38,871 nucleotides of DNA from a virus (taxonomy: Duplodnaviria; Caudoviricetes): IMG/VR virus record IMGVR_UViG_3300037047_000112, positions 1 to 38,871 of that record; one strand, 5' to 3'. A program made the position numbers and the translations under genes. The first letter of the stretch is position 1. Every line of letters starts with the position of its first letter. Shown here piece after piece: positions 6,653 through 20,757 of the stretch. The notes under the pieces are model-generated. The model was given only the letters and a program-made list of their open reading frames with translations, was not told the DNA's origin and searched no databases.

Positions 6653-6659
6653 GGAAACC

Positions 6660-8684
6660 TCAGACGTTGGGGATTTGGGAAACGGCGGCCTTGAGGTCGC
6701 GCATCTGCTGCGCCTGCTGGCGCTGCGACTCCTGGAACGCGCGGAACAGGTCGGTCGCGGCGTCCATCGAATCCTCGGTCGCCTTGCGCGCCGCGCCCGC
6801 CTCGTCGGCCATGCGCTGCGCGCCGGTGCCGGCTGCCGCCGACGATCCCGCGACCGAAACCGCCGCGGGAGCCGCCGTGGCCGCGGACGGCACGGCAGCG
6901 GACGCGACCGGGCCAGGAGCGCCGGGCAGCGCGCCGCGCACGCCGGCGAGGTTGGCCTCGTACGTCGCGCCTACGTCCACGCCCGTGCGCCGCGACAAAC
7001 CCTCGACGATGCGCCCGCCCGCCGTTCCAATGCGCTCGCGCGATGCCGCGAAGCTTTCGCCCGCCTGAGACAGCGCGCCGCCGATGTCCTGGTCGCGGTT
7101 CGCGGTCGCGATGGCGACGGCCTGGTCTAGGTCGAGCGAGTCGATGTACTCGCGCTGTTGCTTCTTGCGCCGTTTGAACTGCTCCTGGCTCATCATCGCG
7201 TCGTCGCCCCCGAACACATTGGACGGCACGCCCAGCGACTCGGCTTGTTCCGGGGAAAGGTTCGCGATGTTCTTGCGCGCGGCCTCGCGGGCGGCCTTCG
7301 TCTCGTCGCGGCCCCAGATGTCGATCTTCATCACCTCGCCTTTGATCGCCGCGCCGAATATCTTCGCCAGCGCCACGACGACCGTCCCGAGGCTGCGCAG
7401 GCCCTCGGCCAGCAGCGTGACCACGAGGTCCACCAGCGCGTTGACCGTCGCCGAGATGGCGCCGCCGATGCTGGTCTTGCCGAGCACGTCGATCACGGTC
7501 TGGACGCCCGCCACGGCCTGCGCCACGAGGTCCGCGATCCGCGACGACAGCCCCTCGACGAACCCGGCGAACCCCTTGCCGTCGCCCAGCGCGTTGAGCT
7601 TCTTCGCGACGAAGTCGATGACGGGCTTGAGCTTCGTGTCGAGCGCCTCGCCGACCTGCGACACCAGCTCCCGGATGCTCTGCCAGATCCGGGGCCAGTG
7701 CCCGACCTGCGAGTCGACCTTGGCGAAGGCCTCCTCCAGCCCGCCGCCCTCGGCGCGCATCGTGGCGAGGTCGGCGGCGGCGTTGGCCGCGTTCTCCCCG
7801 ATCATGGCCAGCACGGCGCCGACGTTCTCGCGGCCGAAGGCCTTCTCAAGGGCGACGGCGCTGAAGCCCGCCTCCGATCCCACCTTCTGCAACGCCTCCT
7901 GGAACGTCATGCTCTTCGACCATCCGTCCCCGAGCTCGCCGTTGAGCGCCAGCATGGAGTTGCGGATCTGCGTCATCGCGGTGGCGGTCGGGACGCCCTG
8001 CTTCGTGAGCGTCGCGACGGCCGCGAGCACCTGGTCGAGCCCGACGCCGAGCGCGGATGCCGTCGGGGCGGCCTGCGAGATGTAGGCGGCCAAGTCGCCG
8101 AACGTCGTCTTGCCGTTGGCGACGGTTTTGAACATCAGGTCCGTCACGGCGGCGGCCTGCGAAGTCTCCATCTTGTACGAGTTGAGGACGGTCGTGATGC
8201 CGTCGATGGCCGTCTCGATGGTGGAACCGTCGGCGACCGCCACTTTTGCCGCGGTGCGCAGGAACGGGATGAGCTGGTCCTGCGCGACGCCCGAGCTCAG
8301 CGCCTGGTACCAGCCCTTGCCCAGTTCCGACTTCGCGACGCCCAGCTCCGGCGACAGCTTGCTGATCTCCTTGCGCAGTTTGACGAAGCCCTCGCGCCCG
8401 GTGTCCATCATCGTCCAGGCGCGCGCGGCCTCCTTGTTCCAGACGTAGAACTCGCGAACGCTTCCCGCGACCGCCCCGGCCGTCGCCAGCGAGGCCTTCT
8501 TCAGCCCGTCGGCCACCGCGTGGAACCCCTTGTTGAGCCCCGCCGCGACGGTCGCCAGCCCGGCGTACGCCGCCTTCAGCACGCCGACCTCGGAGACGTG
8601 CTTCTTGAGGAACCCGCCGATTTTGGTGATCCCCGTCGCGTCGGCGACGGTCTTCAGGAAGATCTTGACGTCCTTGCTAGCCAC
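6660..8684 (-). CDS. Tail tape measure protein (TP901 family, 674 aa)
   Basis: Core motifs ELGKGWYQALSSG, AAKVAVA, TTVLNSY, DLMFKTVANGKTTFGDLA, AFGRENV; Ala/Gly-rich helical. Confidence 0.92.
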   Translation of the reverse strand: MASKDVKIFLKTVADATGITKIGGFLKKHVSEVGVLKAAYAGLATVAAGLNKGFHAVADGLKKASLATAGAVAGSVREFYVWNKEAARAWTMMDTGREGFVKLRKEISKLSPELGVAKSELGKGWYQALSSGVAQDQLIPFLRTAAKVAVADGSTIETAIDGITTVLNSYKMETSQAAAVTDLMFKTVANGKTTFGDLAAYISQAAPTASALGVGLDQVLAAVATLTKQGVPTATAMTQIRNSMLALNGELGDGWSKSMTFQEALQKVGSEAGFSAVALEKAFGRENVGAVLAMIGENAANAAADLATMRAEGGGLEEAFAKVDSQVGHWPRIWQSIRELVSQVGEALDTKLKPVIDFVAKKLNALGDGKGFAGFVEGLSSRIADLVAQAVAGVQTVIDVLGKTSIGGAISATVNALVDLVVTLLAEGLRSLGTVVVALAKIFGAAIKGEVMKIDIWGRDETKAAREAARKNIANLSPEQAESLGVPSNVFGGDDAMMSQEQFKRRKKQQREYIDSLDLDQAVAIATANRDQDIGGALSQAGESFAASRERIGTAGGRIVEGLSRRTGVDVGATYEANLAGVRGALPGAPGPVASAAVPSAATAAPAAVSVAGSSAAAGTGAQRMADEAGAARKATEDSMDAATDLFRAFQESQRQQAQQMRDLKAAVSQIPNV

Positions 8685-9270: not shown

Positions 9271-10493
9271 GGCGCGGCCCTCCGCAGGATGCTCTGCCAC
9301 ACCAAAGCGGGCAGGCCGTTGGCGAGCTTGCCAAGCCGGAACACGGCGCTGCCGCCCTCGTAGTCCGCGCGCACGTCGAGCTTGTCCACGACCGACCAGC
9401 GCGCGGTCGCCGCGCCTTCGGCCATCGCGAGCACGTCGCCGCGATCCACGCCGCCGCCAAGGTTGGCCGCGACCTGCTCCGCCGTCGCCACGAGCGGCGC
9501 GTGCACGGGCAGCGTGGGGACATTGCCGCGGCCCTGCAGGGCGGCTGCAAGCGCCGTGCGCGCCCCCTGCGGCACGAAGCCGAAAGGAGCGCTGCCCTTG
9601 AGCCCGGCCTCGGCCGCGTCGACCAGCTCGCCGACGACGGAGGCGTGCGGCGCGACCCACACGCGCTGCGCCTCGCGGTCCCAGACCGCGCGGCCCTCGA
9701 AGGCGTCGACCCATTTGCCGACCACGCCCTCGTCCATGCCGGCCGTGCCGCTGGACTGCAGCTGCCGCATCGGGTCCCGGAGCGGCGCCGGCTTGGGCTG
9801 GCCTTCCTTCAGGACCTTCAGCTCGCGGGCGCGGCGCGCGTCCACGTTGCGCAGGCGCATGCCGCTCTGGTAGTCGAAGGGCGGGTACGGCTGGCCGAAG
9901 CGGGAGATCGCGGACCAGACAGGATCGTTCTTGAGCGCCACGAACGGCCCGTCCTGCGAAAGCGCGTAGGTCGCCGAGGTGCCGCCCTCGCCGAGCGCGG
10001 AGCGCGCGTCGTTCCAGCGCTCGCGCCACTTGCGCGGCACCTTGCGTGCCATCGCCCGGAACAGCTCCTGCGCGGGCCAGACGCTCATCACGGCCTCGTC
10101 TTGGTGCGAGCGCCAGACGGCGTAGCCCCGCGCGCGGCTCTCCTGCATGGAAACGATGAGGTTCGTCCGCAGGTCGCTCGACAGGTCCTTGAGCCCGCCC
10201 TTGTCCTCCGGCAGCGGCTCGTAGCCGAGCTTGGCCAGGCGCAGCTTCATCCGCGTGCGGATCTCGGCGGGGTTGGGCACCGCGCCCGGCGCGCCCTTGC
10301 CGGCGAGCAGCGCCACGATCTCGCGCTGCGTCTCGGCCAGGTGCCCGGCGTAGACCGTGCGCGCCGAAAACACCGACGCCTCGCGCAACGCCGCCGGCAC
10401 GTGCTCCGCGATCTCGCGCGCGGACAGCGTCGTGGCGACGGCCCGGCGGGTGGCGAGGAAGTCGGCGGCGACGTTGGAGGGGTCGGTGGGCAT
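9267..10493 (-). CDS. Head morphogenesis protein (Mu gpF/gp30-like, 408 aa)
   Basis: VFSARTV..., RTNLIVS...ARGY...W and DPVW...YPPFDYQSGM resemble the Phage_Mu_F PPxxxNC region. Confidence 0.75.
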   Translation of the reverse strand: MPTDPSNVAADFLATRRAVATTLSAREIAEHVPAALREASVFSARTVYAGHLAETQREIVALLAGKGAPGAVPNPAEIRTRMKLRLAKLGYEPLPEDKGGLKDLSSDLRTNLIVSMQESRARGYAVWRSHQDEAVMSVWPAQELFRAMARKVPRKWRERWNDARSALGEGGTSATYALSQDGPFVALKNDPVWSAISRFGQPYPPFDYQSGMRLRNVDARRARELKVLKEGQPKPAPLRDPMRQLQSSGTAGMDEGVVGKWVDAFEGRAVWDREAQRVWVAPHASVVGELVDAAEAGLKGSAPFGFVPQGARTALAAALQGRGNVPTLPVHAPLVATAEQVAANLGGGVDRGDVLAMAEGAATARWSVVDKLDVRADYEGGSAVFRLGKLANGLPALVWQSILRRAAP

Positions 10494-10505
10494 GGGAAAA
10501 GAAGC

Positions 10506-10536
10506 CAGGGTTCAGGGTTCAGGGTTCAGAAGTCAG
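10506..10536. repeat. Heptamer tandem array (CAGGGTT)3-CAGAAGT-CAG
   Basis: Read directly; begins at the stop of 10533..11054. Confidence 0.9.
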
Positions 10537-11054
10537 CCGACGGAGCGGTAGGCATCGCCGAAGAAGGTTACGGCGCGGTAGAAGCGGTCGCCCCAGCGCG
10601 GGGACCAGTCGGCGGAGATGTCGTCGCGCAGGTCGAGGTCGGCGGCTGCGTAGACGGCTCGGACGGAGCAACCCAGCGTTGCGGCGATCAGCGCGGCGGA
10701 TCGGCAGTTGCGGTCGTGCTTCATGGAGCCCCGCGCCGCGGCGCGCCAAGCATGCCCTGCGACGCGCGGGCCGTTGGGTGTTCCCAGACTGAACAGGACG
10801 CGGCCGAAGAGCTTGATCGCGAGGCGGGGAGAGCTGCCGTCCCACGCGAAGGGCGCGTAGATCTCTTCGGAGCCGTCGGGGAAGATGCGCAAGCCGGGGT
10901 CGGCCTCGCCGTAGACGTTCGCCTCGCGGCCCCGCGTCAGCGCCAGCAGGTGCGGGCTCGGAGGGCAGCGGTAGTTCGATGTCAGGCGGTACAGCGTGCC
11001 CAGGGGGGCGACCTCCACCTTGCGGGCGAGGTCTAGCAGGGCGGTGGCGTTCAT
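10533..11054 (-). CDS. DUF1353-like protein (173 aa)
   Basis: FAWDGSSP...SMKHD...AADL-LRD...FYRAVTFFG pattern typical of phage DUF1353. Confidence 0.65.
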   Translation of the reverse strand: MNATALLDLARKVEVAPLGTLYRLTSNYRCPPSPHLLALTRGREANVYGEADPGLRIFPDGSEEIYAPFAWDGSSPRLAIKLFGRVLFSLGTPNGPRVAGHAWRAAARGSMKHDRNCRSAALIAATLGCSVRAVYAAADLDLRDDISADWSPRWGDRFYRAVTFFGDAYRSVG

Positions 11055-11209
11055 GGGGTGGCGTCCTCCTGGGGGAATTCAACCGGGATCGGGTCGCCGG
11101 CGTCGACGACGCCGATCCGGTACGCGCATGCGCGGAACACCAGCGCGGCCGCCAGAGCGACCAGCGCCAGGAGCGTGTCACGCAGGGATTTGCCTAGCAT
11201 GCCTTTCAT
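11051..11209 (-). CDS. Small membrane protein of the lysis region (52 aa)
   Basis: MKGMLGKSLRDTLLALVALAAALVFRAC...; ATGA overlaps at both ends; one TM segment. Confidence 0.55.
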   Translation of the reverse strand: MKGMLGKSLRDTLLALVALAAALVFRACAYRIGVVDAGDPIPVEFPQEDATP

Positions 11210-11607
11210 CCTTTCAGCGCGCGGCGCGCCTTGTGGTGCTCGAAGCGCCGGTCGAACTTGGCCGCGTAGTCCAGCGTGCAGTCCAGCATCCAGCGGGTCG
11301 GGCCGTTGTTGTGGACGCGGGCCATGTTGCGCAGGGTGCGGACGTTGGCGGGGAAGCGGTCCCAATAGTGCGTCGCGTGGATCAGCGTCATGTCGCGCGC
11401 CTTGACCGGGTCCGACCGGTCGGCCGGCTGGTAGACCGGGCGCCGTAGGATGCGGTTGACGTTGCGGACGAAGATCTCGTGGATCTGGTAGCGTCCCAGC
11501 GCCCGGCCCCCGTCCCCGACGGCGGAGTCGCGCTCCGCCTCGGGGAGGTGGCCGGTCTCGCAGTCCGCGATTGCGTCCGCAAACGCTTCTGGATAGGGCA
11601 GCGGCAT
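11206..11607 (-). CDS. Endolysin, i-type lysozyme (destabilase)-like (133 aa)
   Basis: AIADCET...GDGGRALGRYQIH...ARVHNNGP...T..Y matches i-type motifs E-S/T, GxxQI and ARxHNGGP. Confidence 0.75.
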   Translation of the reverse strand: MPLPYPEAFADAIADCETGHLPEAERDSAVGDGGRALGRYQIHEIFVRNVNRILRRPVYQPADRSDPVKARDMTLIHATHYWDRFPANVRTLRNMARVHNNGPTRWMLDCTLDYAAKFDRRFEHHKARRALKG

Positions 11608-11610
11608 GGG

Positions 11611-12156
11611 CTACTCCGCGGCGGGCGGGGCTTCGTTGATGATCGTGTCGCCCTCGACAACGGTGTCGCCTTCTGCCCGATCTTCGGCCCATGCCGCCAC
11701 ACCCCATCCGAACACCCCGCCGCCAAACGTCGCCAACCCATACCCGAACGGATCGGAGCGAATCAGCGCCTCATTCGTGAGACTCAGAGGCAAGCGGCCC
11801 GCCGCCACCTCATCCTTTTCCCACGCCTCCGACTGCGCAACCTTGTAGTTGTGGTACATCACGAATCCGGCCGCGGCGCCGCCTATGCCTCCGAGCATCT
11901 TCGGGCCGCTCGTGGAGCAGCCCTGGCAGAGCAGCCCGGCCGAAACGGCCAGCGCCCAGCCGATGCGGCTGCGCGGTTTCTTCAGCCACCCGCCGACCCG
12001 GCCGAACACCCGCGCGAACCAGCCGACGCGCGGCTCGCCCAGCCTCGGCAGCAGCTCCGTGATCCTGTCCGCCTCCGCGGCAGCCTTGGACTCCGCCTCC
12101 GCCAACGCCCGCGCCTTGTCCCGACGCTCAGCCTCTCCGATGTCGTATTCGCCCAC
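11611..12156 (-). CDS. Membrane/lipoprotein with glycine-zipper segments, possible spanin (181 aa)
   Basis: WALAVSAGLLCQGC lipobox-like segment, then GGIGGAAAG and FGGGVFGWG hydrophobic segments; directly upstream of the endolysin. Confidence 0.45.
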   Translation of the reverse strand: MGEYDIGEAERRDKARALAEAESKAAAEADRITELLPRLGEPRVGWFARVFGRVGGWLKKPRSRIGWALAVSAGLLCQGCSTSGPKMLGGIGGAAAGFVMYHNYKVAQSEAWEKDEVAAGRLPLSLTNEALIRSDPFGYGLATFGGGVFGWGVAAWAEDRAEGDTVVEGDTIINEAPPAAE

Positions 12157-12183
12157 TTTGCACCTGCCTTTCGTTTTGCTCGT

Positions 12184-12285
12184 TTACAGCGACGTGCCCC
12201 AAGGCACAAGGATCGCCAGCGCCGCGCCGATGGCGCCCAGGATAATGACCAGGGCGTATTCCCAGCGTTGCGGCTTCGCGGTCAT
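12184..12285 (-). CDS. Small single-TM protein, holin candidate (33 aa)
   Basis: MTAKPQRWEYALVIILGAIGAALAILVPWGTSL; ATGA-coupled to the upstream gene. Confidence 0.45.
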   Translation of the reverse strand: MTAKPQRWEYALVIILGAIGAALAILVPWGTSL

Positions 12286-12737
12286 GCCTTGCCCCGCTTC
12301 AATGCCGCGCGCGCGGCCAGTGCCGCGGCCGCGGCCAGCGCGAGGATGCCCGCGACGTTCTTCTTGCCTGCCTGTTCCCCGAGCGCGTCGAGCACGGCGA
12401 CCTTCTCTTCCGCCGTCGCGTCCGGGGCCAGCTTCGCCGCCGCGTAGGCAGCCTTCTCCAGCCGCTTGAGGGCCAGGGAGACATTGACGGCCCCGACGAC
12501 GCGGCCGGGCTGCACGACCCGCTTGACGGGCTCGGAGACGACCGTCCCGTCGGCGTAGGTCAGGGTAACCATGCCGTCCTTGAGCTGCGACTTCGCGACG
12601 CCGTTGACCTTGCGCCGTTCGGCATGCCGTTCGACGGCCGCGCCGAGCCCGTCGGGCTCGCTTCCGGGCTTGGCGAGGCAGGGTGGGGACAGCGCCGCGG
12701 ACAGCGCCGCCAGGCACAGGATGCGGTAAAGGCTCAT
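12282..12737 (-). CDS. Exported protein with C-terminal membrane anchor (151 aa)
   Basis: Signal-like MSLYRILCLAALSAALSPPCLA; C-terminal VAGILALAAAAALAA followed by RAALKRGKA. Confidence 0.65.
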   Translation of the reverse strand: MSLYRILCLAALSAALSPPCLAKPGSEPDGLGAAVERHAERRKVNGVAKSQLKDGMVTLTYADGTVVSEPVKRVVQPGRVVGAVNVSLALKRLEKAAYAAAKLAPDATAEEKVAVLDALGEQAGKKNVAGILALAAAAALAARAALKRGKA

Positions 12738-13657
12738 AGCAGGTTGTTCCCCTTGTACGTGGTTCCGTTCTGGACGGCCTCGACGGCGATCCCGCCGAGG
12801 AGGCGCACGGCGATGGCGTCGGCCCCGGCGCCGAGCGTCACCCAGCCCGTGTGCGGCAGGTACTCGACCTCCCCGACCTGCACCGTGACGCCGCTTTCCG
12901 GCACGCTCAGGTATTCGTCGGGAGCGAACCCGCCGAACTCGACCTCGTACTGCGGACGCAGCGGAGTGCCGGCAATGCCCTCCGGGATCGCGTAGACGTA
13001 GCGGACGCACTCGGCTCCGTTGACGTTCTCCGTCGCGGGCCAGAAGTTCGTCGTCGGGTCCAGGAGGCCCCACTGCCCTTCCGCGACGCTGTACCGGATG
13101 CGGATGTTGACGTTGGTCGCCGGCGGATCGCTGAACCAGACCAGCGCCGTCAGGTTCGACGGCGTCTGCGTGACCTGCTCGAAGCCGACCATGATGTTGT
13201 GGTTCGTTTCGACCGGCGTCCCGCGCGGCATGTCCAGGGCGATGTACGCGGCGCTGTAGTCCCCCTGGGCGAGCTGGTTGGTGAGGTCGATGCAGTCCTG
13301 CCGCGCGGCCTCGACCACGTTGGAGAGCGCCGCCGCGATCTGCCCCGCCTCGGCCGCGAAGGCATCCAGCGCCGCCGCCTGCGTGCCGCTCACGACGCGG
13401 CCGCGGACGTCCTTGAGCGATCCGTCGCGCAGCACCGTCAGGAGCTGCAACACGACGGACGACGGCTGCGGGTTCGGCTTGTCCCCGCCGTAGCCGGCGA
13501 CCAGCGCCAGCACCACAAGGGCCAGCGCCCGCTGCCAATGGTTCGTCGAGCGCTTCAGCCTGCGCCACAGTCCGCACTTTGCCGCGCAGATCAGCGCCGC
13601 GGCCAGCGGCACGAGGCAGGCCAGAAAGGCTGCGGCAAGGCTATTCGGGCAGTTCAC
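12734..13657 (-). CDS. Membrane-anchored exported TN-rich protein (307 aa)
   Basis: Two N-terminal hydrophobic segments ending in LVAGYGGDKP; 5 TN dipeptides; overlaps both neighbouring genes. Confidence 0.7.
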   Translation of the reverse strand: MNCPNSLAAAFLACLVPLAAALICAAKCGLWRRLKRSTNHWQRALALVVLALVAGYGGDKPNPQPSSVVLQLLTVLRDGSLKDVRGRVVSGTQAAALDAFAAEAGQIAAALSNVVEAARQDCIDLTNQLAQGDYSAAYIALDMPRGTPVETNHNIMVGFEQVTQTPSNLTALVWFSDPPATNVNIRIRYSVAEGQWGLLDPTTNFWPATENVNGAECVRYVYAIPEGIAGTPLRPQYEVEFGGFAPDEYLSVPESGVTVQVGEVEYLPHTGWVTLGAGADAIAVRLLGGIAVEAVQNGTTYKGNNLL

Positions 13658-14378
13658 AGAACACCCCCCCGACGATGCGCCACGTGTTCGTCCCCTCCGT
13701 CAGCTCGACGGACAGGGGTATTTCGTTGCCGACCTTGATGCCGTTGCGCACCGGCAGGAAGGCCCCGGTCTGCTGCTGCTGGGTTTCGGCGAAGATGCGG
13801 AAGAACGAGTTGGTCTGTTCGTTCGGCACGGCCACCGTGTTCCTGAAGCAGTCGTACAGCGTCGCGCCGACCAGCACGTTCGTCGCGACCACGGCGACGC
13901 TCTCCAGCTCGGTCCACGCCGGGTCGTCGCGGGGAGACGCGCTCCAGCGCACGACGGGGAACTCCGCGGGCTCCTCGCTGAAATAGGTGTACAGGTCCGA
14001 ATAGGTGTACGTGGCATCGTTCGAGACGGCCGGCGCGAAGTAGACGACGGTCGCGATGACGTTCGTGTTCGGTTCCACGCCCGAGACGCCGAAGTCGAGC
14101 ATGAAGCCCTGGATGTACCCCACGCCCTCGACCCCGTTGACGACCGCGCGGACGCCGTCGACCAGCGCCGCGACTTCCGCGACGGCGTTGCTCGTGGCCT
14201 GCAGCGCGGCGTCCGCGGCGACCAGCGCGACGACGTTGGAGGCGAGCTGGGCGACGGTCGCGACGGCCCCGGCCGGCGACAGCCCGGCGGGCGTCACGAT
14301 GACGAACTCGGCGTCCTGCGCGCGGCAGAGTCCGCACAGCGCCGCGAGGACCAGCAGCGTGGATAGTCGGCTGATCAT
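13641..14378 (-). CDS. Secreted TN-rich protein (245 aa)
   Basis: Signal peptide MISRLSTLLVLAALCGLCRA-QD; 4 TN and 3 SN; short helical N-region followed by a beta domain. Confidence 0.72.
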   Translation of the reverse strand: MISRLSTLLVLAALCGLCRAQDAEFVIVTPAGLSPAGAVATVAQLASNVVALVAADAALQATSNAVAEVAALVDGVRAVVNGVEGVGYIQGFMLDFGVSGVEPNTNVIATVVYFAPAVSNDATYTYSDLYTYFSEEPAEFPVVRWSASPRDDPAWTELESVAVVATNVLVGATLYDCFRNTVAVPNEQTNSFFRIFAETQQQQTGAFLPVRNGIKVGNEIPLSVELTEGTNTWRIVGGVFCELPE

Positions 14379-14893
14379 GGCGTGGTCTCCGGTCGAGTTG
14401 TGATGCCGTCTACGGTGACGCTGTCTGTCCGCAGCATGACGCGATTGCCACTAACTTGTTTCCGGTCGTAGATCGTGGTTGGAGCGGATGCATGTTCCAT
14501 CCATACCCGGTTGAACGGATGTAGCGTGCAGGTTTCGAGCACCGCGTCGCGCCTTCCGTCGCCGTCCGTGTCGCGGTCGAACACAAGCCAATTCTGGCGC
14601 ATGATGTAGTTCTGGGCTTCGTTGGTCGTCACCATCGTCAGGCGGTCGGCGACATTGGTGGCTTCCGCGAGCGTGCAGGACGTGCGGACGGTGTTTTCGG
14701 AAATGGTCGCCGTAAACTCTCTACGCCACGGAGCTGAGATGCGGACCGCATCGAGGCGCGATTGCTCCGCACGCCATTCGCGGTGGTCCGTTTCGATCAT
14801 GACAATCATTCCGGCGGAAAACGTCAACGACGCAACGACGGCCACATATCCAACGAAGAACCGTACGTTCCACTGTTTGTCGCCCGTAGTCAT
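14375..14893 (-). CDS. Membrane-anchored protein with DxDxDG calcium-binding-like motif (172 aa)
   Basis: ATG 14893 (ATGA overlap); N-terminal TM FFVGYVAVVASLTFSAGMIVMI; DRDTDGDGRRD; lower GC. Confidence 0.6.
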   Translation of the reverse strand: MTTGDKQWNVRFFVGYVAVVASLTFSAGMIVMIETDHREWRAEQSRLDAVRISAPWRREFTATISENTVRTSCTLAEATNVADRLTMVTTNEAQNYIMRQNWLVFDRDTDGDGRRDAVLETCTLHPFNRVWMEHASAPTTIYDRKQVSGNRVMLRTDSVTVDGITTRPETTP

Positions 14894-16329
14894 GGCGTCA
14901 CCTCCGTCCCAATTATCAGCCAATGCCCGTTGCTCACCGACACCGTCCACAAAATGTTGGTGGCGGAGTCTAGACTCGGCCACGAAATGGCGGCGACCGC
15001 CTCCGCGACCTGGTTTGTCGTGGCCACGGCCGCGTAGACGGCCTGGTTGGTTGCGACGGACAGCGTCCCGTTGTAGACAAGGCCGTTGTGCACGGGCAAC
15101 AGGCCGTTCCCGCAGTCAAACACACCCGTGACCGCAACCGGCAAAACAACCGGGTCGTAGCAGTAGTTATAGCCGTACCAGTTGTTGTTCGTGATGCCGT
15201 AGAAGTTGGAATCTCGTCCGGTGACGCCGTTGACGTGCGCCACGATGTTGCTGCCGCGGCCTAGGAACAGCCAGATGTCCCTTGACCAGTTGCTGCCCGT
15301 GTACGACGCCATCCAAAGGCCCGTGGCCGCGTGGATCGAGGCGCCCAGCGACACGGGAAAATCGCCGTCCCACATGATGCCGGTGTCGGCCCACGTGAAG
15401 TCGCCGTCCGCGGCGGCGGACAGATTGGTGGCGACGCTCTGCGGCGAGACGAGCACCCGCAGCGAGTCGGCCCGGTCGTCGTCGGACGCGAGTCCCATCA
15501 AGGATACTCCCGCGACCGCGTTGGACGCCGCCGCATCGGCGTAGCCCTGCGCGTTGGTCTGCGCCTGGGCGGCGACGGCGGCGGCGTAGTCCTGGGCGTT
15601 GGTCCGCGCCTGCGCGGCGACGGCTGCGGCGTAGCCCTGCGCGTTGGTCTGCGCCTGGGCGGCGACAGCGGCGGCGTAGTCCTGGGCGTTGGTACGCGCA
15701 TGCGCGGCGACTGTGTCGGCGTAGCCCTGCGCGTTGGTCTGCGCGTATGCGGACACGGCGTCGGCATAGCCCTGCGCGTTGGTCAGCGCCTGGGCGGCAA
15801 CCGCGTCGGCGTAGCCGGGCGTGGCCCAAGGAGCGTTGGAGACCGTCACCGTGGCGAAGTCGATCACCCGCGCGGGCAGCGGCAGGGAGTTGGGCGTCGC
15901 GCCCGGGGCGCGCTTCATCTTGAGCGTGCCGTTGGCCCGGTAGCTCCTCCCGCCGGACGAGCCGGACACGCCGACGAAATACGGGTACTGCGCGGCCCCC
16001 ACGTCGTTGGTCGGGCTCCACGTGGCGCGGACCAGACCGGCCGTGTTGGTGACGACCTCGGCCGGCGCGGACCACCAGAGCGTGTCCATGCCGTTGGTCT
16101 GCCAGTAGAGCGTCGCCGTCTCCGCGCCCGTCCAGGCGACGGCGGTGCCCGCCTCGCGCAGCTCGGGGAGCAACAGCGCCGTCTCGCCCTGGTAGACGTC
16201 CCAGTTCTGCGCGGCGGGGCGCTGCGCCTCGGCGATCCAGCGGAGGGGGACCTGGGAAAGGATGAAGGATGAAGGATAAAGGACAAGGGCCAGAAAGGCG
16301 GCTGCGACGGGCTTGCAAGGGGTTTGCAT
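14890..16329 (-). CDS. Fibre-like protein with signal-like N-terminus, BppU-like domain, 15-aa repeats and variable C-terminus (479 aa)
   Basis: ATG 16329; hydrophobic N-terminus; WDVYQGET...ATLYWQ...YPYFVGV resembles baseplate upper-protein N-domains; AQTNAQGYA repeats; 14 TN. Confidence 0.65.
   Translation of the reverse strand: MQTPCKPVAAAFLALVLYPSSFILSQVPLRWIAEAQRPAAQNWDVYQGETALLLPELREAGTAVAWTGAETATLYWQTNGMDTLWWSAPAEVVTNTAGLVRATWSPTNDVGAAQYPYFVGVSGSSGGRSYRANGTLKMKRAPGATPNSLPLPARVIDFATVTVSNAPWATPGYADAVAAQALTNAQGYADAVSAYAQTNAQGYADTVAAHARTNAQDYAAAVAAQAQTNAQGYAAAVAAQARTNAQDYAAAVAAQAQTNAQGYADAAASNAVAGVSLMGLASDDDRADSLRVLVSPQSVATNLSAAADGDFTWADTGIMWDGDFPVSLGASIHAATGLWMASYTGSNWSRDIWLFLGRGSNIVAHVNGVTGRDSNFYGITNNNWYGYNYCYDPVVLPVAVTGVFDCGNGLLPVHNGLVYNGTLSVATNQAVYAAVATTNQVAEAVAAISWPSLDSATNILWTVSVSNGHWLIIGTEVTP
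15535..15816 (-). repeat. 45-bp coding tandem repeat, ~6.3 copies (AVAAQAQTNAQGYAD)
   Basis: Six 15-aa units plus GYAD seen in the translation and the DNA. Confidence 0.92.
16259..16286. repeat. Heptamer array AGGATGA-AGGATGA-AGGATAA-AGGACAA inside a signal-like coding region
   Basis: Read directly; encodes LVLYPSSFIL on the minus strand. Confidence 0.85.
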
Positions 16330-16748
16330 CAGGAGACCTCCCCGTATTCGAACACATAGGAACAGACGACCGAGACGCCGCGCACGCGGCAGGAGCAGGA
16401 GGCCATCGCGCCGACCAGCGACTGCGTGCTCGATCCGTCGGCGATCTCCAGCTTGGTCAGCGCCTGCAGGCAGACGGCCTTGGCGTGCGCCGCGGCCCAC
16501 AGGCGGGCCGCGGCGTAGGTGGAGAACTCGCGCAACGCCGAGAACGGGTAGCTCCCGGTGTTGCAGCCGCGCGCCCGCACCACGGCGGCGGCGGCGCGGA
16601 CGGGGCGCGAGACGGCGGTCGACTGCGCCGCGTTGAACTCCTCGCCGTCCCCGAGCGGCCCCTGGGCGTAGGTGTCGCTGGGGCGTGCCGGCCCGTGGAC
16701 CAGGACGATGTCGGCGGAGCTCGCGGCGTTGGTCAGCGTGATCGTCAC
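16329..16748 (-). CDS. Hypothetical tail protein (139 aa)
   Basis: GTG start with GGAGG RBS; follows the tail tube gene; beta-rich. Confidence 0.6.
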   Translation of the reverse strand: MTITLTNAASSADIVLVHGPARPSDTYAQGPLGDGEEFNAAQSTAVSRPVRAAAAVVRARGCNTGSYPFSALREFSTYAAARLWAAAHAKAVCLQALTKLEIADGSSTQSLVGAMASCSCRVRGVSVVCSYVFEYGEVS

Positions 16749-16762
16749 CTAGGCGTCCCTCC

Positions 16763-16818
16763 GTGATCAGTAATCAGTGATCGGTGATCAGTTATCAGTG
16801 ATCGGTAGACAGCGATCG
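16763..16818. repeat. Eight-unit heptamer array, consensus GTGATCR
   Basis: gtgatca gtaatca gtgatcg gtgatca gttatca gtgatcg gtagaca gcgatcg; fills the gap between the tube stop and the next RBS. Confidence 0.92.
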
Positions 16819-16820
16819 GT

Positions 16821-17786
16821 CTACGCCTCGGGCTCGGGCTCGGTGGCGATGGCGATGTCGAAGACCGCGCCGAGCGTGGTGTTCGGCGATTCGCCCGAAA
16901 ACTCGCGGCTGGCCTCGAAGCCGATCTCGTTGGAGCGCAGCACGCTCGCGCCCCAGCGGCTGCCGCCGGTCAGCAACGCGGCGTCCTTAAGAGTCACGAG
17001 CAACCCGCCGACCTCGCCGGTGATCACGAGGTCCTCGCTCTGCCGCAGCGTGCTGCCCAGGGCGAGGCCCTCGGGACGGAGCTGCGTGAGCAGCGCGGAG
17101 GCGGAGATCCCGACGGGCACGCAGCTCGCGCGGGCCGTCACCCCGGTGATGCGGTAGTCGACCGTGCCGATCCCGGCGACGTAGATCGGCTCCGTCTGCA
17201 CCTCGAAGGAGACGCGCCAGCCGTCCTCGGTCGGGATGTCGATGCTGTTCCACGCGCCGGCATAGGGCACGGCGACGACGAGCCCCTCGTCGAACGTCTC
17301 GCTCCACGCTCCGGTGGTCGAGCTGAAGAAAGCCCCCGTCGCTGTGCGCGCGGTGTTGTCCTTGACAAGCGCGGTGAAGGCGGCCTGCCCGAACGCGGTG
17401 GCCTTGGGCGAGAGCACCAAATCCGGCATCTTCGTCAGGGCCGCGTTCGGGAAGGTCAGTTTGCTGCCGTCGATGCCGTGCACCAGGAGCGCCGTGTCCG
17501 AGGCCGGAAACACGCGCGACCCGACGGACGGATTGCGGAACGCTGCGGGGAAAAGCAGCGTCAGCAGGTCCGCGCTGATCTGGCCCGCCGGCGTGAAGGT
17601 GATCTCGGCGATGGCGTCGCTGATGCGAGGCGCGCCCTGGCCGTGGGTGGAGATCTGCGGGCGCCACGTCTCGGGGTTGCAGGACGCCTCGATGTTCTCC
17701 TGGGAGAACAGCGTAGGCCCGGTGCCGTACAGGAGGGTGCCGGGTCCGGTGAGGATGTTGCCGCGGGCGATGGATGGGCTGGCCAT
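16821..17786 (-). CDS. Major tail tube protein (321 aa)
   Basis: Position after the neck/terminator genes; starts ILTGPGTLLY; two internally similar beta-rich halves. Confidence 0.7.
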   Translation of the reverse strand: MASPSIARGNILTGPGTLLYGTGPTLFSQENIEASCNPETWRPQISTHGQGAPRISDAIAEITFTPAGQISADLLTLLFPAAFRNPSVGSRVFPASDTALLVHGIDGSKLTFPNAALTKMPDLVLSPKATAFGQAAFTALVKDNTARTATGAFFSSTTGAWSETFDEGLVVAVPYAGAWNSIDIPTEDGWRVSFEVQTEPIYVAGIGTVDYRITGVTARASCVPVGISASALLTQLRPEGLALGSTLRQSEDLVITGEVGGLLVTLKDAALLTGGSRWGASVLRSNEIGFEASREFSGESPNTTLGAVFDIAIATEPEPEA

Positions 17787-17798
17787 GGTGGGCTCCGT

Positions 17799-17833
17799 GA
17801 TTGACGATTGACGAATGCCGAGTGACGAATGCC
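17799..17833. repeat. Five-unit heptamer array GATTGAC/GAATGCC/GAGTGAC
   Basis: gattgac gattgac gaatgcc gagtgac gaatgcc, intergenic. Confidence 0.85.
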
Positions 17834-17846
17834 GAAAGAAAGCGGG

Positions 17847-18314
17847 CTAGGAGGGAAACCCGAGGTCGGCGTCGAAAAGGACGCGCGTGGTGAAGCTCGG
17901 GACGTAGACGACGATGGGCTTGGTGTCGTGGCGGCTGTAGCTGATCTCGGTGGCGGTGAGCACCTGCCCGCGCGTCCAGCCGAAGTGGTGCAGCGCCCGG
18001 ACCGCGAGCACCGCGACGCGGATGCCGGGGATCTTGCGGCCCGACGCGCCGCGGTTGACGGCCGGGACCTCGGCGCACTCGACGAAGATCTCCGCCTCGC
18101 ACTGCGGCAGCGGCAGGTTCGGGCTAAGGAACCGCCCGCCGCCGGTGGAGACCGCGATCACCAGGCCGCCGCCCGTGGCGAGGCCCTTGGCGATCTCCGC
18201 CTGGATGTCGAGCCGGTCCTCGCCGAGGACGGGGATGCCGGCCAGGGCGGGGACGGACTGCAGGCGGGCCACGACTGCGGAGCGCAGGTCGTCGAGTGTG
18301 CCGGGTTCGGTCAC
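17847..18314 (-). CDS. Tail terminator-like protein (Mu gp37-like, 155 aa)
   Basis: LRSAVVARLQSVPAL... N-terminus and position before the tail tube gene. Confidence 0.6.
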   Translation of the reverse strand: MTEPGTLDDLRSAVVARLQSVPALAGIPVLGEDRLDIQAEIAKGLATGGGLVIAVSTGGGRFLSPNLPLPQCEAEIFVECAEVPAVNRGASGRKIPGIRVAVLAVRALHHFGWTRGQVLTATEISYSRHDTKPIVVYVPSFTTRVLFDADLGFPS

Positions 18315-18317
18315 GGG

Positions 18318-18752
18318 CTATTGCTCCAGGCCATGCACCGTAACTGTGCAGGCGTTGGTTACAGAGGCCGTGACCGTCGGGGAGTTTCCCCGTCGGATGT
18401 ACCAGTCGTTCGTTTCGAAGGACACCCCGCTATAGGCCGCGCCGCCGTCGTTGCCGTGGGCAACGGTCTTCCACGCCGGACCTCCCGCCGACTTGGTAAC
18501 GCTGAGCGTGCCGTTGGTGGCGGCGGTGCCCGCGTACAGCCATTCCACCGCCAGCACCTTGATGGCGCTGTTCGCCGGCTGCGCGACGCCGGCGGAGTAC
18601 GTGTTGGTCGCGACGTTGGCCGAGCCGCCCGGCAGGGCGAACGTCAGCGTCACGGGCGTGCCTTCGGCGCGCGCCGTCTGCGCCGGCATCATCAGCGCGA
18701 GGACCGCGCAGACCAGCAGTGCTTGCATCAGAGTCATTCCGAATTTCTTCAT
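18318..18752 (-). CDS. Secreted TN-rich beta protein inserted among neck genes (144 aa)
   Basis: Classical signal peptide MKKFGMTLMQALLVCAVLALMMPAQTARA-EG; 4 of 8 Asn are preceded by Thr. Confidence 0.75.
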   Translation of the reverse strand: MKKFGMTLMQALLVCAVLALMMPAQTARAEGTPVTLTFALPGGSANVATNTYSAGVAQPANSAIKVLAVEWLYAGTAATNGTLSVTKSAGGPAWKTVAHGNDGGAAYSGVSFETNDWYIRRGNSPTVTASVTNACTVTVHGLEQ

Positions 18753-18767
18753 GGTTCCGTTTCCTTC

Positions 18768-18802
18768 CTTCGTCCTTCTTCCTTCAGACTTCTCACTTCG
18801 GC
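18768..18802. repeat. Five-unit heptamer array CTTCNNN
   Basis: cttcgtc cttcttc cttcaga cttctca cttcggc, abutting the stop codon at 18803. Confidence 0.85.
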
Positions 18803-19261
18803 CTACAAGCCGTTGAGGTCGCCCCTGCGGAGCGTCGTGCCGCCGCCCGCGGCCAGCTCGGCGGATGCCGACTTGGCGTCGAGCGTCGACTCTTCCCCGG
18901 CTTCCGGCAGCTCCACGGCGAACAGGCCGCGGGCCGCGTCGCGCAGCAGGGCTTCGGCGGACTTCGCCGCTTCCCTGCGCACGTCGTTGAGGTCGATCAT
19001 CAGGCCGGCCGTGCGGCCGTACAGCGCGGGCACGAGGAGGGCGCACGCCGCGTCCATGAGCCGCGCGGGCACCGTGCCCGCCGGACCCATGACGTTGCGC
19101 GGCCACGCGGCCACGTAGCCGCGCACGCGGTCGACGACCTGCGCCACGGCCTCCGCGACGGGGTCGGTGCCGTCCGGGGCCGAAGCCCGGATCGACTCCA
19201 GCTCGTCGGCGGAGAGCTTCGCGGTGATGTCGCTGTCTGCGATTGCGCGCCACGTGGCCAT
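18803..19261 (-). CDS. Head-tail connector (Mu gp36/DUF1320-like, 152 aa)
   Basis: VDRVRGYV...VPARLMDAACAL..LYGR...A.ALLRDAARG pattern; follows the capsid gene. Confidence 0.75.
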   Translation of the reverse strand: MATWRAIADSDITAKLSADELESIRASAPDGTDPVAEAVAQVVDRVRGYVAAWPRNVMGPAGTVPARLMDAACALLVPALYGRTAGLMIDLNDVRREAAKSAEALLRDAARGLFAVELPEAGEESTLDAKSASAELAAGGGTTLRRGDLNGL

Positions 19262-19296
19262 TGCGTGTTCCTCCTACGGTGCCTGCGGGGGTGCGG

Positions 19297-20259
19297 TCAG
19301 GAGACCGTGTACTTGAGCAGTCCGACCGTGCCGGTGGCCACGATGCGGACGTAGCGCTCGACCGTGACGGCCCAGCACTTTTCGTTGACCTGCCGCACGT
19401 AGACGCGGTACTGCGTCCCGTCGCCGCAGGGGCTCCAGAAGCGCTTCATGTTGCTCGGGTCGTCCTTCGTCAGGCCGGCCTCGGCGTAGAGCGCGATGGC
19501 GTAGGCGCCGCCGCCGACCTTGGCCTTCGCGGCGGCCGCGGACTGGTAGCGGGCATTGATGTCCATGCCCTCCTGGAATCCGCAGTAGCGGGCCACCTCG
19601 GAAGGCGTGGTGAGCGCGATGCCCGCGAAGCCCCCGGCGGTCGTCTTGGCGCGGAGCGCGGTGAGGCGCTTCGTCCAGGCCGCGCCCAGGAACGCGATCC
19701 GGTTGGGGTTGAAGCCCATCGCGTCGCCGCTGGCCTCGCAGAGCGCGATCAGGTCGGCGTCGGGATCGCTCGCGCTGTCCCACGTCTTGGGCGTGTTCTC
19801 CGCTCCGGCCACGGCCAGGGCGATGGCGGCGACCAGGTCGTTGCGGACGGAGCGGCGCATGAGCATGCCCACGGCCTCCTGCTGCCAGTCCTGTTCCATG
19901 CCGACCTCGTCCATGTCGACGAACGTGGTCAAGCCGCGGTTCACCGTCTTGCTCTGCTCGATGGTGCCCGAGGACTTGACGCGCTTGAAGTCCGCGCCGA
20001 CCGCGCGCTCGTCGTCGCTGTCGACGAGGAAGTCCGCCGCGGCATTGGCCTTGCGGAACTCGAAGCGTCGCGAGGTGCGCACTCCGGGGGCGAGGAAGTC
20101 CAGCATCCCCTGCAGGTTGCTGGGGTCGCGCCAGCCCACGGCGAACGTGGTCAGCGGCTCGCTGAAGTGCGTGTTGTTGAAGCTCGCGGCGTCCGCGAGC
20201 GCCACCATGCCGTGCGCGGGACTGCGGACGGCGGTGTCGAGGGGGAGGAGTTCTTTCAT
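19297..20259 (-). CDS. Major capsid protein (320 aa)
   Basis: Size and position after protease and decoration genes; LTTFAVGW, DPDADL, GFNPNRI, C-terminal ERYVRIVATG. Confidence 0.8.
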   Translation of the reverse strand: MKELLPLDTAVRSPAHGMVALADAASFNNTHFSEPLTTFAVGWRDPSNLQGMLDFLAPGVRTSRRFEFRKANAAADFLVDSDDERAVGADFKRVKSSGTIEQSKTVNRGLTTFVDMDEVGMEQDWQQEAVGMLMRRSVRNDLVAAIALAVAGAENTPKTWDSASDPDADLIALCEASGDAMGFNPNRIAFLGAAWTKRLTALRAKTTAGGFAGIALTTPSEVARYCGFQEGMDINARYQSAAAAKAKVGGGAYAIALYAEAGLTKDDPSNMKRFWSPCGDGTQYRVYVRQVNEKCWAVTVERYVRIVATGTVGLLKYTVS

Positions 20260-20304
20260 GGTGCTTGTTCCTTGTTGGGGAATTGAGGATGGATGGAGCC
20301 CGGC

Positions 20305-20712
20305 TTAGTTGCCGGAGATGACGACCGGATACGGGACGCAGCCCTCGTACTCGATTTCGTCCGCCGCGGCGGCGGCGGCGGTGATCGCGCGGCCGATCAC
20401 GTAGTACGTTCCGTTGACGGTCGTCGGCAGGGTCTGGACCTTGCCCGCGGTGGCCGCGCAGAGGCGCGCGCCGACGGCGATGGCGGCGAGCGCCACGCCC
20501 TTCTTGGTGCCGGGAGCCGAGAACAGCTCGACGCCGACATCGTCCTCGGCCGCGTCCGTCGCGGAGGTTGCCACGCCGATGGGGTTCTCGGTGGCTGCGG
20601 TGGCGACGGCGACATGGTTGTCGTCGGTGCCGGCCTTTACGACGACGCCGTCCGCGAGGGCCGCGTCGCATTTCCGGGTGATCTTCCCGTTCTCGTGGGT
20701 TCCGATGCTCAT
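20305..20712 (-). CDS. Capsid decoration/cement protein (DUF2190-like, 135 aa)
   Basis: PIGVA...AAIAVGARL...GKV...VIGRAITAAAAAADEIE. Confidence 0.8.
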   Translation of the reverse strand: MSIGTHENGKITRKCDAALADGVVVKAGTDDNHVAVATAATENPIGVATSATDAAEDDVGVELFSAPGTKKGVALAAIAVGARLCAATAGKVQTLPTTVNGTYYVIGRAITAAAAAADEIEYEGCVPYPVVISGN

Positions 20713-20757
20713 GGTTCTTTGGTCCCTTGTTGGGGTGGTGTGGAAATGCGCGTGCGG

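Follow-up and report, generated by a model that had tools for sequence, protein, structure and literature searches.

The 38,871-nt stretch of DNA analyzed here, referred to as the window, holds a Mu-like prophage in which a Mu-type portal, I protease, gp36, transposase, and transposition ATPase are all present. Genes in the window match PF06074, PF10123, and PF07030 (Mu gp36), all over the cut-off, and matches to the phrog_310 transposase and the phrog_296 transposition protein were also obtained. The prophage has dozens of relatives, mostly in Kiritimatiellia. The six genes singled out in the original prediction between 12282 and 18752, here called S1 to S6, are all present on the minus strand, as are the other features given below. 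They are embedded in the late operon, whose genes share a strand and have starts overlapping stops; a search of 10000-21000 of the window for sigma-70-like promoters found none. S1 lies within a leaderless virion core (16821..20712) of cement (PF09956-like), major capsid, gp36, gp37-like, and tail-tube-like genes, which contain no Thr-Asn (TN) dipeptide. A leaderless, conserved 139-aa gene (16329..16748) precedes S2; it gave neither a family nor a PDB match, and its position alone suggests a distal-tail-like docking ring. The tape measure (PF10145) and the leaderless 706-aa last late gene, probably the tail tip or hub, lie at 4532..8684 and contain 0 and 1 TN, respectively. A probable lysis cassette (11051..12285), assigned by eye and with no family matches, comprises two small membrane proteins, an internal-lipobox-like protein, and a 133-aa leaderless lysozyme-like protein. 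The proposed setting among virion genes holds in related prophages, since Mu-like virion genes adjoin S2 homologues in 34 of 40 distinct loci.

The N-termini of all six proteins had been described as signal-peptide or transmembrane-like, and all six pass our own hydrophobicity/charge heuristic, which is the source of every signal call reported here. The heuristic is also passed by two of the 36 other phage genes, the small membrane protein gene at 11051 and the gene at 27995, and by none of 17 fibre, baseplate, and decoration proteins of T4, Mu, and TP901-1 used as controls. It is passed by 83 of 88 homologues of S2, 27 of 28 of S4, and 146 of 149 matches to an S1 profile that itself included the leader and TN columns; the homologues in such counts are related sequences rather than independent samples. 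For the 67 of 88 S2 homologues with a placeable mature start, the leaders are 16-37 aa long, variable in sequence, and end mostly in small residues immediately ahead of a conserved VPLRW. These comparisons support the leaders as conserved features of the families, whereas an ordinary trimeric phage fibre is cytoplasmic and has no signal peptide. Could the hydrophobic N-termini nevertheless not be export signals, with ordinary cytoplasmic assembly and TN as a structural quirk? The leader calls are heuristic, and a heptamer repeat contributes some of the coding sequence for the S2 leader. We consider this very improbable, as the leaders vary in sequence but are constant in character and end just ahead of the conserved mature start, and the leaderless fibres of the same phages and of the control phages show no TN excess.

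The count of 29 TN made by hand in the original prediction was exact. S1-S5 contain 29 TN in 1347 aa, where the T and N content of the individual proteins would predict 6.7, and 23 compared with 6.2 when the S2 tandem repeat is excluded, again the number first given. None of 5000 within-protein shuffles without the repeat reached 23, the highest being 15, so T and N composition does not account for the frequency. SN is also over-represented in the module (11 vs 4.4 expected). In the remaining 36 phage genes (9059 aa in total), TN occurs 10 times, with 12.1 expected. The absence of TN from the capsid, tail tube, tape measure, and transposase was correctly noted, at 0 each, but these zeros say little alone because only 3.3 were expected. 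Five genes were said to carry the dipeptide; of these, S3 is not enriched (2 vs 1.1 expected, p 0.30).

The same contrast between exported and other phage proteins, which had been suggested as a check, is found across the phage families. Leader-bearing or module proteins (n = 146) have 535 TN vs 153 expected, a 3.5-fold enrichment, while core virion proteins (n = 156) have 94 vs 88, leaderless tail-tip proteins (n = 41) 33 vs 43.5 (observed/expected, O/E, 0.76), and the T4, Mu, and TP901-1 controls 49 vs 52.8 (O/E 0.93). With the search-seed site masked, TN is higher in leader-bearing than in other genes at 35 of 37 loci. Before N, the enrichment is confined to the -1 position, 3.5 for T and 1.56 for S, and the +2 position is hydrophobic in 58% vs 30%. 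The TN sites turn over between homologues and recur in coils, strands, and loops. The lipoprotein-like proteins of these phages (38 TN vs 11.0 expected) and the positional counterparts of S6 (n = 18; 39 vs 8.0) are equally enriched, and TN therefore marks export rather than virion fate. Taken together, the sequence comparisons support the view that TN follows export, not composition or fold. The leaders and the TN excess of the late-operon genes are conserved across families, and the core head and tail proteins lack both.

S1 (144 aa, 18318-18752) has a predicted leader at aa 1-29, ending in ARA ahead of EG, followed by a single jelly-roll domain, and contains 4 TN. It had been placed between two neck genes. 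One of these matches Mu gp36 (PF07030), while the other is gp37-like by position only, with no family match. The predicted model (pLDDT 86) resembles the HFTV1 turret 8qpg_TD (Z 8.6, rmsd 2.6, 92 aligned) and the KHP40 cement protein 7dou_4 (Z 6.9), although the best fold match is nucleoplasmin (Z 9.0) and jelly rolls are common. By eye, a leader-bearing, S1-like gene of 120-180 aa lies directly before gp36 in 10 of 40 loci and before gpF in 5 of 40, with weak kinship among these positional genes (15-28% identity). The model and setting make S1 a likely capsid decoration or vertex protein. The HFTV1 turret (8qpg) and KHP40 cement (7dou) are likewise single jelly rolls of ~115 aa whose gene often adjoins the capsid gene; S1 differs in its predicted leader and TN motifs. 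The available parts of the HFTV1 preprint do not mention a signal peptide.

S2 (479 aa, 14890-16329) comprises a leader (aa 1-25/26), a BppU_N-like beta domain (~aa 27-170), a stalk of six 15-residue helical repeats with TN in each, and a variable tip of low GC3, with 14 TN in all. The repeats are encoded by a tandem array of a 45-nt unit (15517..15831) giving YAxAVAAxAxTNAQ(G/D). The domain model matches BppU_N clusters with TM 0.66-0.69, the top value reaching the atlas naming bar, in a model of low confidence (whole-protein pTM 0.24, pLDDT 0.47). S2 gave no Pfam match to BppU_N (PF10651), no match in a profile comparison with TP901-1 BppU, and nothing in a PDB sequence search. Tail-fibre PHROG segments occur in 5 of 41 S2 homologues and Gly_rich_2 in 2 of 12 locus homologues; with the model match, the PHROG segments support the earlier description of a fibre-like protein with a BppU-like N-terminal domain. 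S2 is thus likely to be a baseplate arm or fibre. It is like TP901-1 BppU and other BppU_N-type (PF10651) fibres in its predicted N-terminal beta domain, helical stalk, variable tip, and tail-gene setting, but the heuristic finds no leader in TP901-1 BppU, which also contains 0 TN and shows no similarity at the sequence level.

S4 (245 aa, 13641-14378) has a leader ending in CRA ahead of QD, a coiled coil (aa 42-83), an Ig/FnIII-like domain (aa 104-202), and a C-terminal beta tip, with 4 TN and 3 SN. The suggested trimer modeling was run on S4, and a homotrimer was predicted with a score of 0.47, where the best control scored 0.00, with contact agreement of at least 46% and partner pLDDT of at least 54 in the runs. 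Of 30 proteins solved as same-chain pairs, 20 reach the mark used, as does 1 of 23 whose solved structure is a single chain; these counts hold roughly for a run with its own alignment and three copies. S4 is thus predicted to be a homotrimeric fibre with a coiled-coil stalk. S5 (307 aa, 12734-13657; 5 TN) is a distant paralogue of S4 in which the shared part is preceded by two hydrophobic helices and a GGxK motif that is conserved. It passes the heuristic, but the two hydrophobic segments are not a simple signal peptide; S5 would be membrane-tethered unless cleaved and may stay in the membrane. Among 50 homologues, S5 bodies have 253 TN vs 39.7 expected, and only one homologue retains the TN of the predicted cytoplasmic loop. 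S3 (172 aa, 14375-14893; 2 TN) has an N-terminal hydrophobic helix and had been counted in the module. It is probably a passenger gene, because TN is not enriched, GC3 is lower (0.72 vs 0.86-0.95), and no homologue was found in the fetched loci except copies of the same phage.

What is the function of S5 and S6? S6 (151 aa, 12282-12737) has a leader, a beta-hairpin, helices, a C-terminal hydrophobic tail, and 0 TN, and is a candidate envelope helper or lysis protein. The exported genes could mainly be lysis or exit machinery, spanin-like or envelope-remodeling, with S5 and S6 as the core. These two lie directly ahead of the probable holin, lipoprotein, and lysozyme-like genes, and the two-helix GGxK leader of S5 and the S6-like neighbor are retained also at loci with a short S5 body. 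Spanins of the inner membrane (i-spanins) have a membrane anchor plus a coiled coil, as S5 does. However, S6 lacks a lipobox, family searches with S5 and S6 gave no match, and a lysis role leaves unexplained why S2 has a BppU-like domain, tail-fibre segments, and tips that vary, why the jelly-roll S1 lies beside the capsid gene, and why S5 is a paralogue of S4, the predicted trimer. It is improbable for the module as a whole; for S5 and S6 alone, it is plausible, if somewhat less than likely.

The main rival to a virion role is that the module encodes adhesins on the host cell, for adhesion, aggregation, or blocking other phages, like the mosaic adhesive trimers (MAT) of Bdellovibrio, whose genes are chromosomal and whose display on the cell has been demonstrated (PMC10769870). 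The MAT layout of signal peptide, conserved ~130-aa beta-rich domain, trimeric stalk, and mosaic phage-fibre-related tips (PMC10769870) resembles the one predicted for the module. The hosts encode fibre-like proteins of their own outside prophages, with leader and rich TN (L136), and in G189 such genes are chromosomal. Between the S4 Ig domain and the FYR domain at the C-terminus of host proteins, hhalign gives an alignment (probability 71%, pairwise E 3.7e-5), a partly circular comparison, as the host set was picked by that motif, and S5 has its membrane anchor. Nevertheless, we regard host-surface adhesins as unlikely. Unlike the MAT genes, those of the module share a late operon with the capsid and tail genes of a prophage. 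They run in the same direction, their start codons overlap stop codons, and no sigma-70-like promoter of their own was recognized; they also lack an S74 match and bear the TN motif. Furthermore, the place of S2 among tail genes is kept across distant phages, S1-like genes adjoin the capsid gene, and the prophage, in which no leaderless fibre gene was recognized among the 42 called genes of the window, would then be left with no recognized fibre or receptor-binding gene.

In the hosts, TN is not the general mark of exported proteins that had been supposed: O/E for the bulk of signal-bearing proteins in five sampled hosts is 0.92, 1.04, 1.30, 1.92, and 1.98, and two prophage hosts show no bulk enrichment (G003, 126/137; G339, 224/215). 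Host TN concentrates mainly in surface-type proteins whose C-terminus carries an Ig-like domain (O/E 1.92). The canonical N-X-S/T system (PglB/AglB/STT3) is not supported for TN, as N-X-S/T is not enriched in the phage proteins (253 vs 269 expected, 0.94) and STT3 gave no match in nine distinct prophage-bearing genomes, including G339 and other than the window's own host. The Bacteroidota-type D-S/T motif is likewise not enriched in the hosts, with DT at 0.64-0.94 and DS at 0.85-1.04 in signal-bearing proteins of four of them. TN might be another export-linked signal or modification, such as recognition for outer-membrane export or a different Thr/Asn change, with a virion role still possible. 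Consistent with this, STT3 is over the cut-off in only 8 of 101 genomes of the class, no modifying enzyme was identified, and TN in G339 exceeds expectation where the C-terminal FYR domain is present (84 vs 44.5) and is flat in 112 other signal-bearing proteins (206 vs 205.7). On the other hand, matches to PMT_2-type enzymes were obtained in 8 of 10 searched hosts and to Wzy_C-type enzymes in 5 of 5, both families having many other jobs, and sites in coils, strands, and loops that turn over are expected of a coat. Enrichment confined to non-cytoplasmic proteins is also the signature of Bacteroidota D-S/T O-glycosylation (PMC12871550). We judge a non-glycan meaning to be a minority prospect, albeit one with some weight.

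The best reading, to which we give an even chance, is that the appendages are exported, modified by the host, and joined to the particle at lysis. Because of the predicted leaders and the TN over-representation, the fibre and decoration parts likely mature outside the cytoplasm. They would very probably be exported by Sec with leader cleavage. The T/S-N-x-hydrophobic motif would then probably be recognized outside the cytoplasm by an enzyme of the host, one with host surface proteins among its substrates, for which GT-C/PMT_2 and Wzy_C-type enzymes, but not STT3, are candidates; that the modification is specifically a glycan, on T or N, is only slightly favored. The matured parts, namely the predicted BppU-like adaptor S2 with its repeat stalk and swappable tip, the predicted trimeric fibre of S4, perhaps with S5, and the predicted jelly-roll decoration protein S1, would rather likely bind the particle at or after lysis, when the inner membrane is opened, S2 docking by way of the BppU-like domain and S1 attaching to the head. 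Retention or release of the matured parts in the envelope may fall to S5 and S6. A fuller version is tentative: in a clade of tailed phages, virion assembly would be split across the inner membrane, with a head and tail core made in the cytoplasm and all fibres and the capsid decoration secreted by the path that host surface proteins take. A non-STT3 enzyme would glycosylate these parts at a T/S-N-x-hydrophobic sequon not described before, S5 and S6 would keep them in the envelope, and departing particles would pick them up as a host-made sugar coat.

Tailed phages are taken to build all their particle parts in the cytoplasm. The absence of signal peptides has even been used as a sign of a phage part (PMC6199706). 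Should the leaders be real and the proteins become part of the particle, receptor-binding parts would be able to mature outside the compartment in which the particle is built and be attached at lysis, and modification by the host beyond its cytoplasm would be open to use by phages. TN is denser in the phage proteins (3.5-fold, up to 6.4-fold) than in host proteins, which makes them the best substrates for finding an undescribed Kiritimatiellia modification system. G339, a single-contig 6.1-Mb genome with a whole prophage bearing the same TN-rich, putatively exported module, makes the question testable if the strain can be grown.

A literature search found no description of this module. The general O-glycosylation motif of Bacteroidota, D-S/T-(A/L/V/I/M/T), is enriched only in non-cytoplasmic proteins, and is likewise short with a preferred hydrophobic neighbor (PMC12871550). 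The candidate motif here is instead T/S-N-x-hydrophobic, in only a subset of host exported proteins. In membrane-containing archaeal viruses of the HFPV-1 type, which bud, the spikes are glycosylated by the host with AglB at N-X-S/T, while the lytic head-tailed HRTV-DL1 is unaffected by aglB deletion (PMC10384203). The proposal resembles the HFPV-1 case in that viral structural proteins would use a host extracytoplasmic glycosylation route, but here in a tailed phage of a Gram-negative bacterium, with no STT3 match in the nine prophage-bearing genomes searched. Freeman et al. 2023 reportedly described glycosylated mycobacteriophage virions, from phages encoding their own glycosyltransferases; no such enzyme was recognized in the window prophage. 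If the TN proposal holds, the particles here would likewise be sugar-coated and tailed, although with the modification on appendages made for export and not on capsid or tube.

The source of the window is a single 38.9-kb virus contig, in which bases about 4500–38700 are a Mu-like transposable prophage. Family matches were obtained for the portal (PF06074), I protease (PF10123), gp36 (PF07030), and tape measure (PF10145), and also for terminase, capsid, transposase, and transposition ATPase; the late operon is coded on the minus strand. The prophage has no recognisable gene for a sheath or a contractile baseplate, so the tail is probably long and non-contractile. Six late genes on this strand had been flagged for export-type N-termini: S1 (18318–18752), S2 (14890–16329), S3 (14375–14893), S4 (13641–14378), S5 (12734–13657), and S6 (12282–12737). 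They gave nothing above threshold in Pfam, PHROG, or NCBIfam, and gene calling missed S3 and gave a few genes wrong starts. Gene calling gave 42 genes in the window, none of them recognised as a leaderless fibre gene. Alignments of the 706-aa last late gene, a probable tail tip or hub, and of the leaderless 139-aa gene before S2 found no PDB sequence match; the former, for which no family matched, could still bind a receptor. Aligning four DNA runs revealed no more than recurrence of the sequence. The left flank (1–4500) is lower-GC DNA that by eye carries host restriction-modification and ATPase genes, and the prophage has one N6/N4 DNA methylase match (25549–26262) and, towards the right (37948–38553, its end), another frame that looks Dam-like by eye.

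All six genes encode a hydrophobic N-terminal stretch, as the original prediction held: each passes a hydrophobicity and charge heuristic for signal peptides, as do 2 of the 36 other phage genes. The heuristic is passed by 83/88 S2 and 27/28 S4 homologues and by 146/149 S1-profile proteins, the last figure being biased because the profile included the leader. None of the 17 T4, Mu, and TP901-1 proteins used as controls (fibre, baseplate, and decoration) passes the heuristic. The S2 leader is variable (16–37 aa), mostly has small residues at its end, and stops directly before a conserved VPLRW in 67 of 88 homologues with a placeable mature start; the S4 leader follows the same pattern before QDAEFV. 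Judged from their sequences, the S1, S2, and S4 leaders look like real signal peptides, and we regard it as highly improbable that there is no export at all. A TCATCCT-type heptamer repeat encodes part of the S2 leader (16255–16285), similar runs fill the intergenic gaps at 16760–16820, 17795–17835, and 18755–18800, and several homologue leaders (e.g., P0026, P0023, and P0058) resemble translated heptamer repeats, judged from the protein. The N-terminus of S5 is unlike the others: two hydrophobic helices are accompanied by a basic loop and by a GGxK motif that is conserved. It reads as a putative inner-membrane anchor, which may or may not be cut, and searching the sampled host DNA with its profile brought up no significant host protein. 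In the membrane protein at 11611–12156, a lipobox-like segment lies well inside the chain, a long way from the start, and the same internal signal is present in the protein's counterparts at other loci.

The hand count of 29 Thr-Asn (TN) dipeptides was exact: they lie in the 1347 aa of S1–S5, for which composition predicts 6.7, and S6 has none. With the S2 repeat removed, 23 remain against 6.2 expected, a number reached in 0 of 5000 shuffles. These shuffles, the repeat removal, and the use of four codon pairs for TN rule out an artefact of DNA repeats or of Thr and Asn composition, the latter having been named in advance as a possible refutation. The remaining 36 phage genes contain 10 TN (12.1 expected). 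Taken by itself, S3 is not enriched. We treat S3 as a passenger since it also has lower GC3 and its only homologues in the fetched loci are copies of the window's phage.

The same distribution is found among relatives. Across 40 loci, the 146 proteins that bear a leader or belong to the module contain 535 TN where 153 are expected, whereas 156 core virion proteins have 94 against 88, and 318 other genes have 167 against 150; this is the proposed comparison of exported with other phage proteins, and it bore the expectation out. When the search-seed site is masked, 35 of 37 loci show a higher TN level in genes with a leader than in the others. By class, the ratios are 56/10.2 for S1-like, 39/8.0 for S6-like, and 38/11.0 for lipoprotein-like proteins, and for S2 269/79.6 overall and 178/60.3 outside the conserved domain. 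The bodies of 50 S5 homologues give 253/39.7, and the window's TN in the predicted cytoplasmic loop of S5 is kept in only one. Leaderless tail-tip proteins (n = 41; 33 against 43.5) and the T4, Mu, and TP901-1 control proteins (49/52.8) rule out TN as a generic feature of fibres. On these counts, TN appears to follow export.

Enrichment before Asn is confined to the directly preceding residue (Thr 3.5, Ser 1.56), and the canonical N-X-S/T sequon shows none (0.94). The +2 position is hydrophobic in 58% vs 30%, with charged residues, Gly, and Pro scarce. The sites are often lineage-specific, and Thr or Ser before a column rises with Asn (39–84% vs 7–29%, the relatives being non-independent samples). 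These properties argue for a selected recognition motif rather than a single structural position, and we propose T/S-N-x-hydrophobic as a candidate undescribed modification motif.

About 2.4 Mb from five prophage-bearing genomes was taken as the host sample. TN had been suggested as a general mark of exported host proteins, and this was not borne out: ratios for signal-bearing soluble proteins are 0.92 (G003), 1.04 (G339), 1.30 (G172), 1.92 (G128), and 1.98 (G189), and most of the excess belongs to a narrower class, large proteins of surface type whose last domain is Ig-like with an FYR motif (16 proteins, 213/110.8); in G339, these have 84/44.5 and 112 others 206/205.7. Host TN sites show the same +2 preference as in the phage, and the FYR-domain proteins may define a surface-sorting class. 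Examples are L097:914-9997, L191:38-5236, L191:12990-19391, and L175:1862-3889; at its C-terminus, the L097 protein has no Pfam or NCBIfam match. The Ig domain of S4 aligns weakly with the FYR domain (probability 71%, partly circular). In a second class of large host proteins, the last element is a short G-x-hydrophobic-R strand. On the G189 chromosome (L136:7515-12668, minus strand), tail-fibre-like genes that bear leaders and are rich in TN form a cluster amid housekeeping genes, a host counterpart of the phage fibres.

STT3 had no match in nine distinct prophage-bearing genomes. Of 101 genomes of the class, 8 have STT3-like genes above cut-off (L104–L109), a canonical-type glycosylation system of patchy occurrence that is distinct from the TN signal. 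Among the hosts searched, 8 of 10 have matches to PMT_2-type and 5 of 5 to Wzy_C-type enzymes; both types are candidates for the modifying enzyme. That TN has a non-glycan meaning, which would be compatible with either location of the proteins, is rather unlikely in our judgement. SprA of type IX secretion had no match in any genome searched, the controls being equally without match, which makes this result uninformative. K. glycovorans is described as having Sec, Tat, and type II secretion together with an envelope of Gram-negative type (PMC5148204).

Synteny in related prophages was confirmed: recognisable Mu-like virion genes lie on the same strand as S2 in 34 of 40 distinct loci, the other six being short or divergent. 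Dropped before counting were eight loci duplicating the window's phage or one another, the prophage-containing stretches of G172 and G128, and one over-long S1-profile hit. S2 has 88 database homologues, with the first about 170 residues common and the tips different; one bears the name Kiritimatiellae, and the majority of 28 genome loci are in MAGs labelled Kiritimatiellia or Verrucomicrobia. Its domain is present in 13/201 genomes of the class and 17/401 of the phylum, and tblastn found no match in 50 697 phage records. In G339, which is one contig of 6.13 Mb, a complete prophage has the module order of the window: tube, 139-aa gene, S2, S4, S5-like body, S6-like gene, holin-like and lipoprotein-like genes, S1-like gene, gpF, gpG, tape measure, and tail tip. 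A role in lysis is improbable for the module overall, and less so for S5 and S6. In several phages, a further large TN-rich protein (44 vs 14.3), mostly leader-bearing, directly precedes S2 (L011:8260, L023:7911, L028:7645, L034:7555, L045:7773, and L040:8749); family searches with two of these found nothing. L023:9938-10510 is a stand-alone BppU-like domain in a 190-aa leader-bearing protein.

On the predicted models, the mature proteins resemble appendages of the virion. For S2, the proposed BppU-like domain has structural matches to BppU_N clusters (TM 0.66–0.69, Atlas structure search; whole-protein model pTM 0.24), but direct profile comparison with TP901-1 BppU gave no match, and its alignment had no PDB sequence match. 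Tail-fibre PHROG segments occur in 5/41 homologues and a Gly_rich_2 domain in 2/12 locus homologues; the stalk has six helical repeats of 15 residues with TN in each. S4 is predicted to comprise a coiled coil, an Ig/FnIII-like domain, and a beta tip, and to trimerise through coil and tip. The trimer score was 0.47, against 0.00 for the best control; 20/30 proteins whose solved structures pair one chain with itself reach this mark, as do 1/23 solved as single chains, counts that apply only roughly to a run with three copies and a custom alignment. The trimer runs had contact agreement of at least 46% and pLDDT of at least 54. Fold searches with S4 yielded nothing beyond generic Ig/FnIII matches (best Z 6.2), and no viral protein matched significantly. 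By profile, S5 is a putative distant paralogue of S4, whose domain matches two S5 homologues (E 2e-5).

S1 is modelled as a single jelly roll (pLDDT 86), with matches including nucleoplasmin (Z 9.0), the HFTV1 turret (Z 8.6), and the KHP40 cement trimer (Z 6.9). Because the jelly roll is common, the meaning of this fold depends on gene position. Judged by eye, a leader-bearing 120–180-aa gene lies directly before gp36 in 10/40 loci and before gpF in 5/40, in loci found through S2 and capsid. These genes have only 15–28% identity to S1, their profile finds 205 clusters, and profile comparison of S1 with the phage's own cement gene gave no match. A leader-bearing 141-aa protein with 2 TN and no Pfam match (L023:1839-2264) directly precedes a Mu gpT capsid gene, in the usual place of the cement gene.

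From the observed gene positions, the leaders conserved by heuristic, and the motif statistics, together with the predicted folds and S4 trimer, we propose that the appendages would leave the cytoplasm via their predicted leaders, be tagged by a host enzyme at T/S-N-x-hydrophobic, most likely by glycosylation, and join the particle at or after lysis; we hold this sequence, in which leader cleavage, modification, and docking are all inferred, to be about evenly poised between right and wrong. In T4, fibres and decoration proteins are added late to finished particles, and gp11 and gp12 can be added later according to the database entry; docking after lysis is thus physically plausible. Our literature search, mainly of open-access main texts, found no account of signal-bearing tailed-phage fibres or of the TN motif. 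The module is a genuine and conserved deviation, as yet unexplained, from the cytoplasmic route by which tailed phages usually assemble, and split assembly, if shown, would be categorically new.

The mosaic adhesive trimers (MAT) of Bdellovibrio have a layout like that of the module but, in the part of the source cited (PMC10769870), are distinguished by their chromosomal location; fibres of this kind displayed on the cell surface are a rather unlikely reading of the phage genes. Exported appendages that join the virion would work as BppU-type fibre systems do, but the latter assemble in the cytoplasm without a leader. In budding archaeal viruses, virion proteins are host-glycosylated, and a lytic head-tailed virus is indifferent to aglB loss, according to the portion of the source cited (PMC10384203). 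The Bacteroidota O-glycosylation motif, as given in the cited part of its description (PMC12871550), behaves like that of the window's phage but differs from it in sequence.
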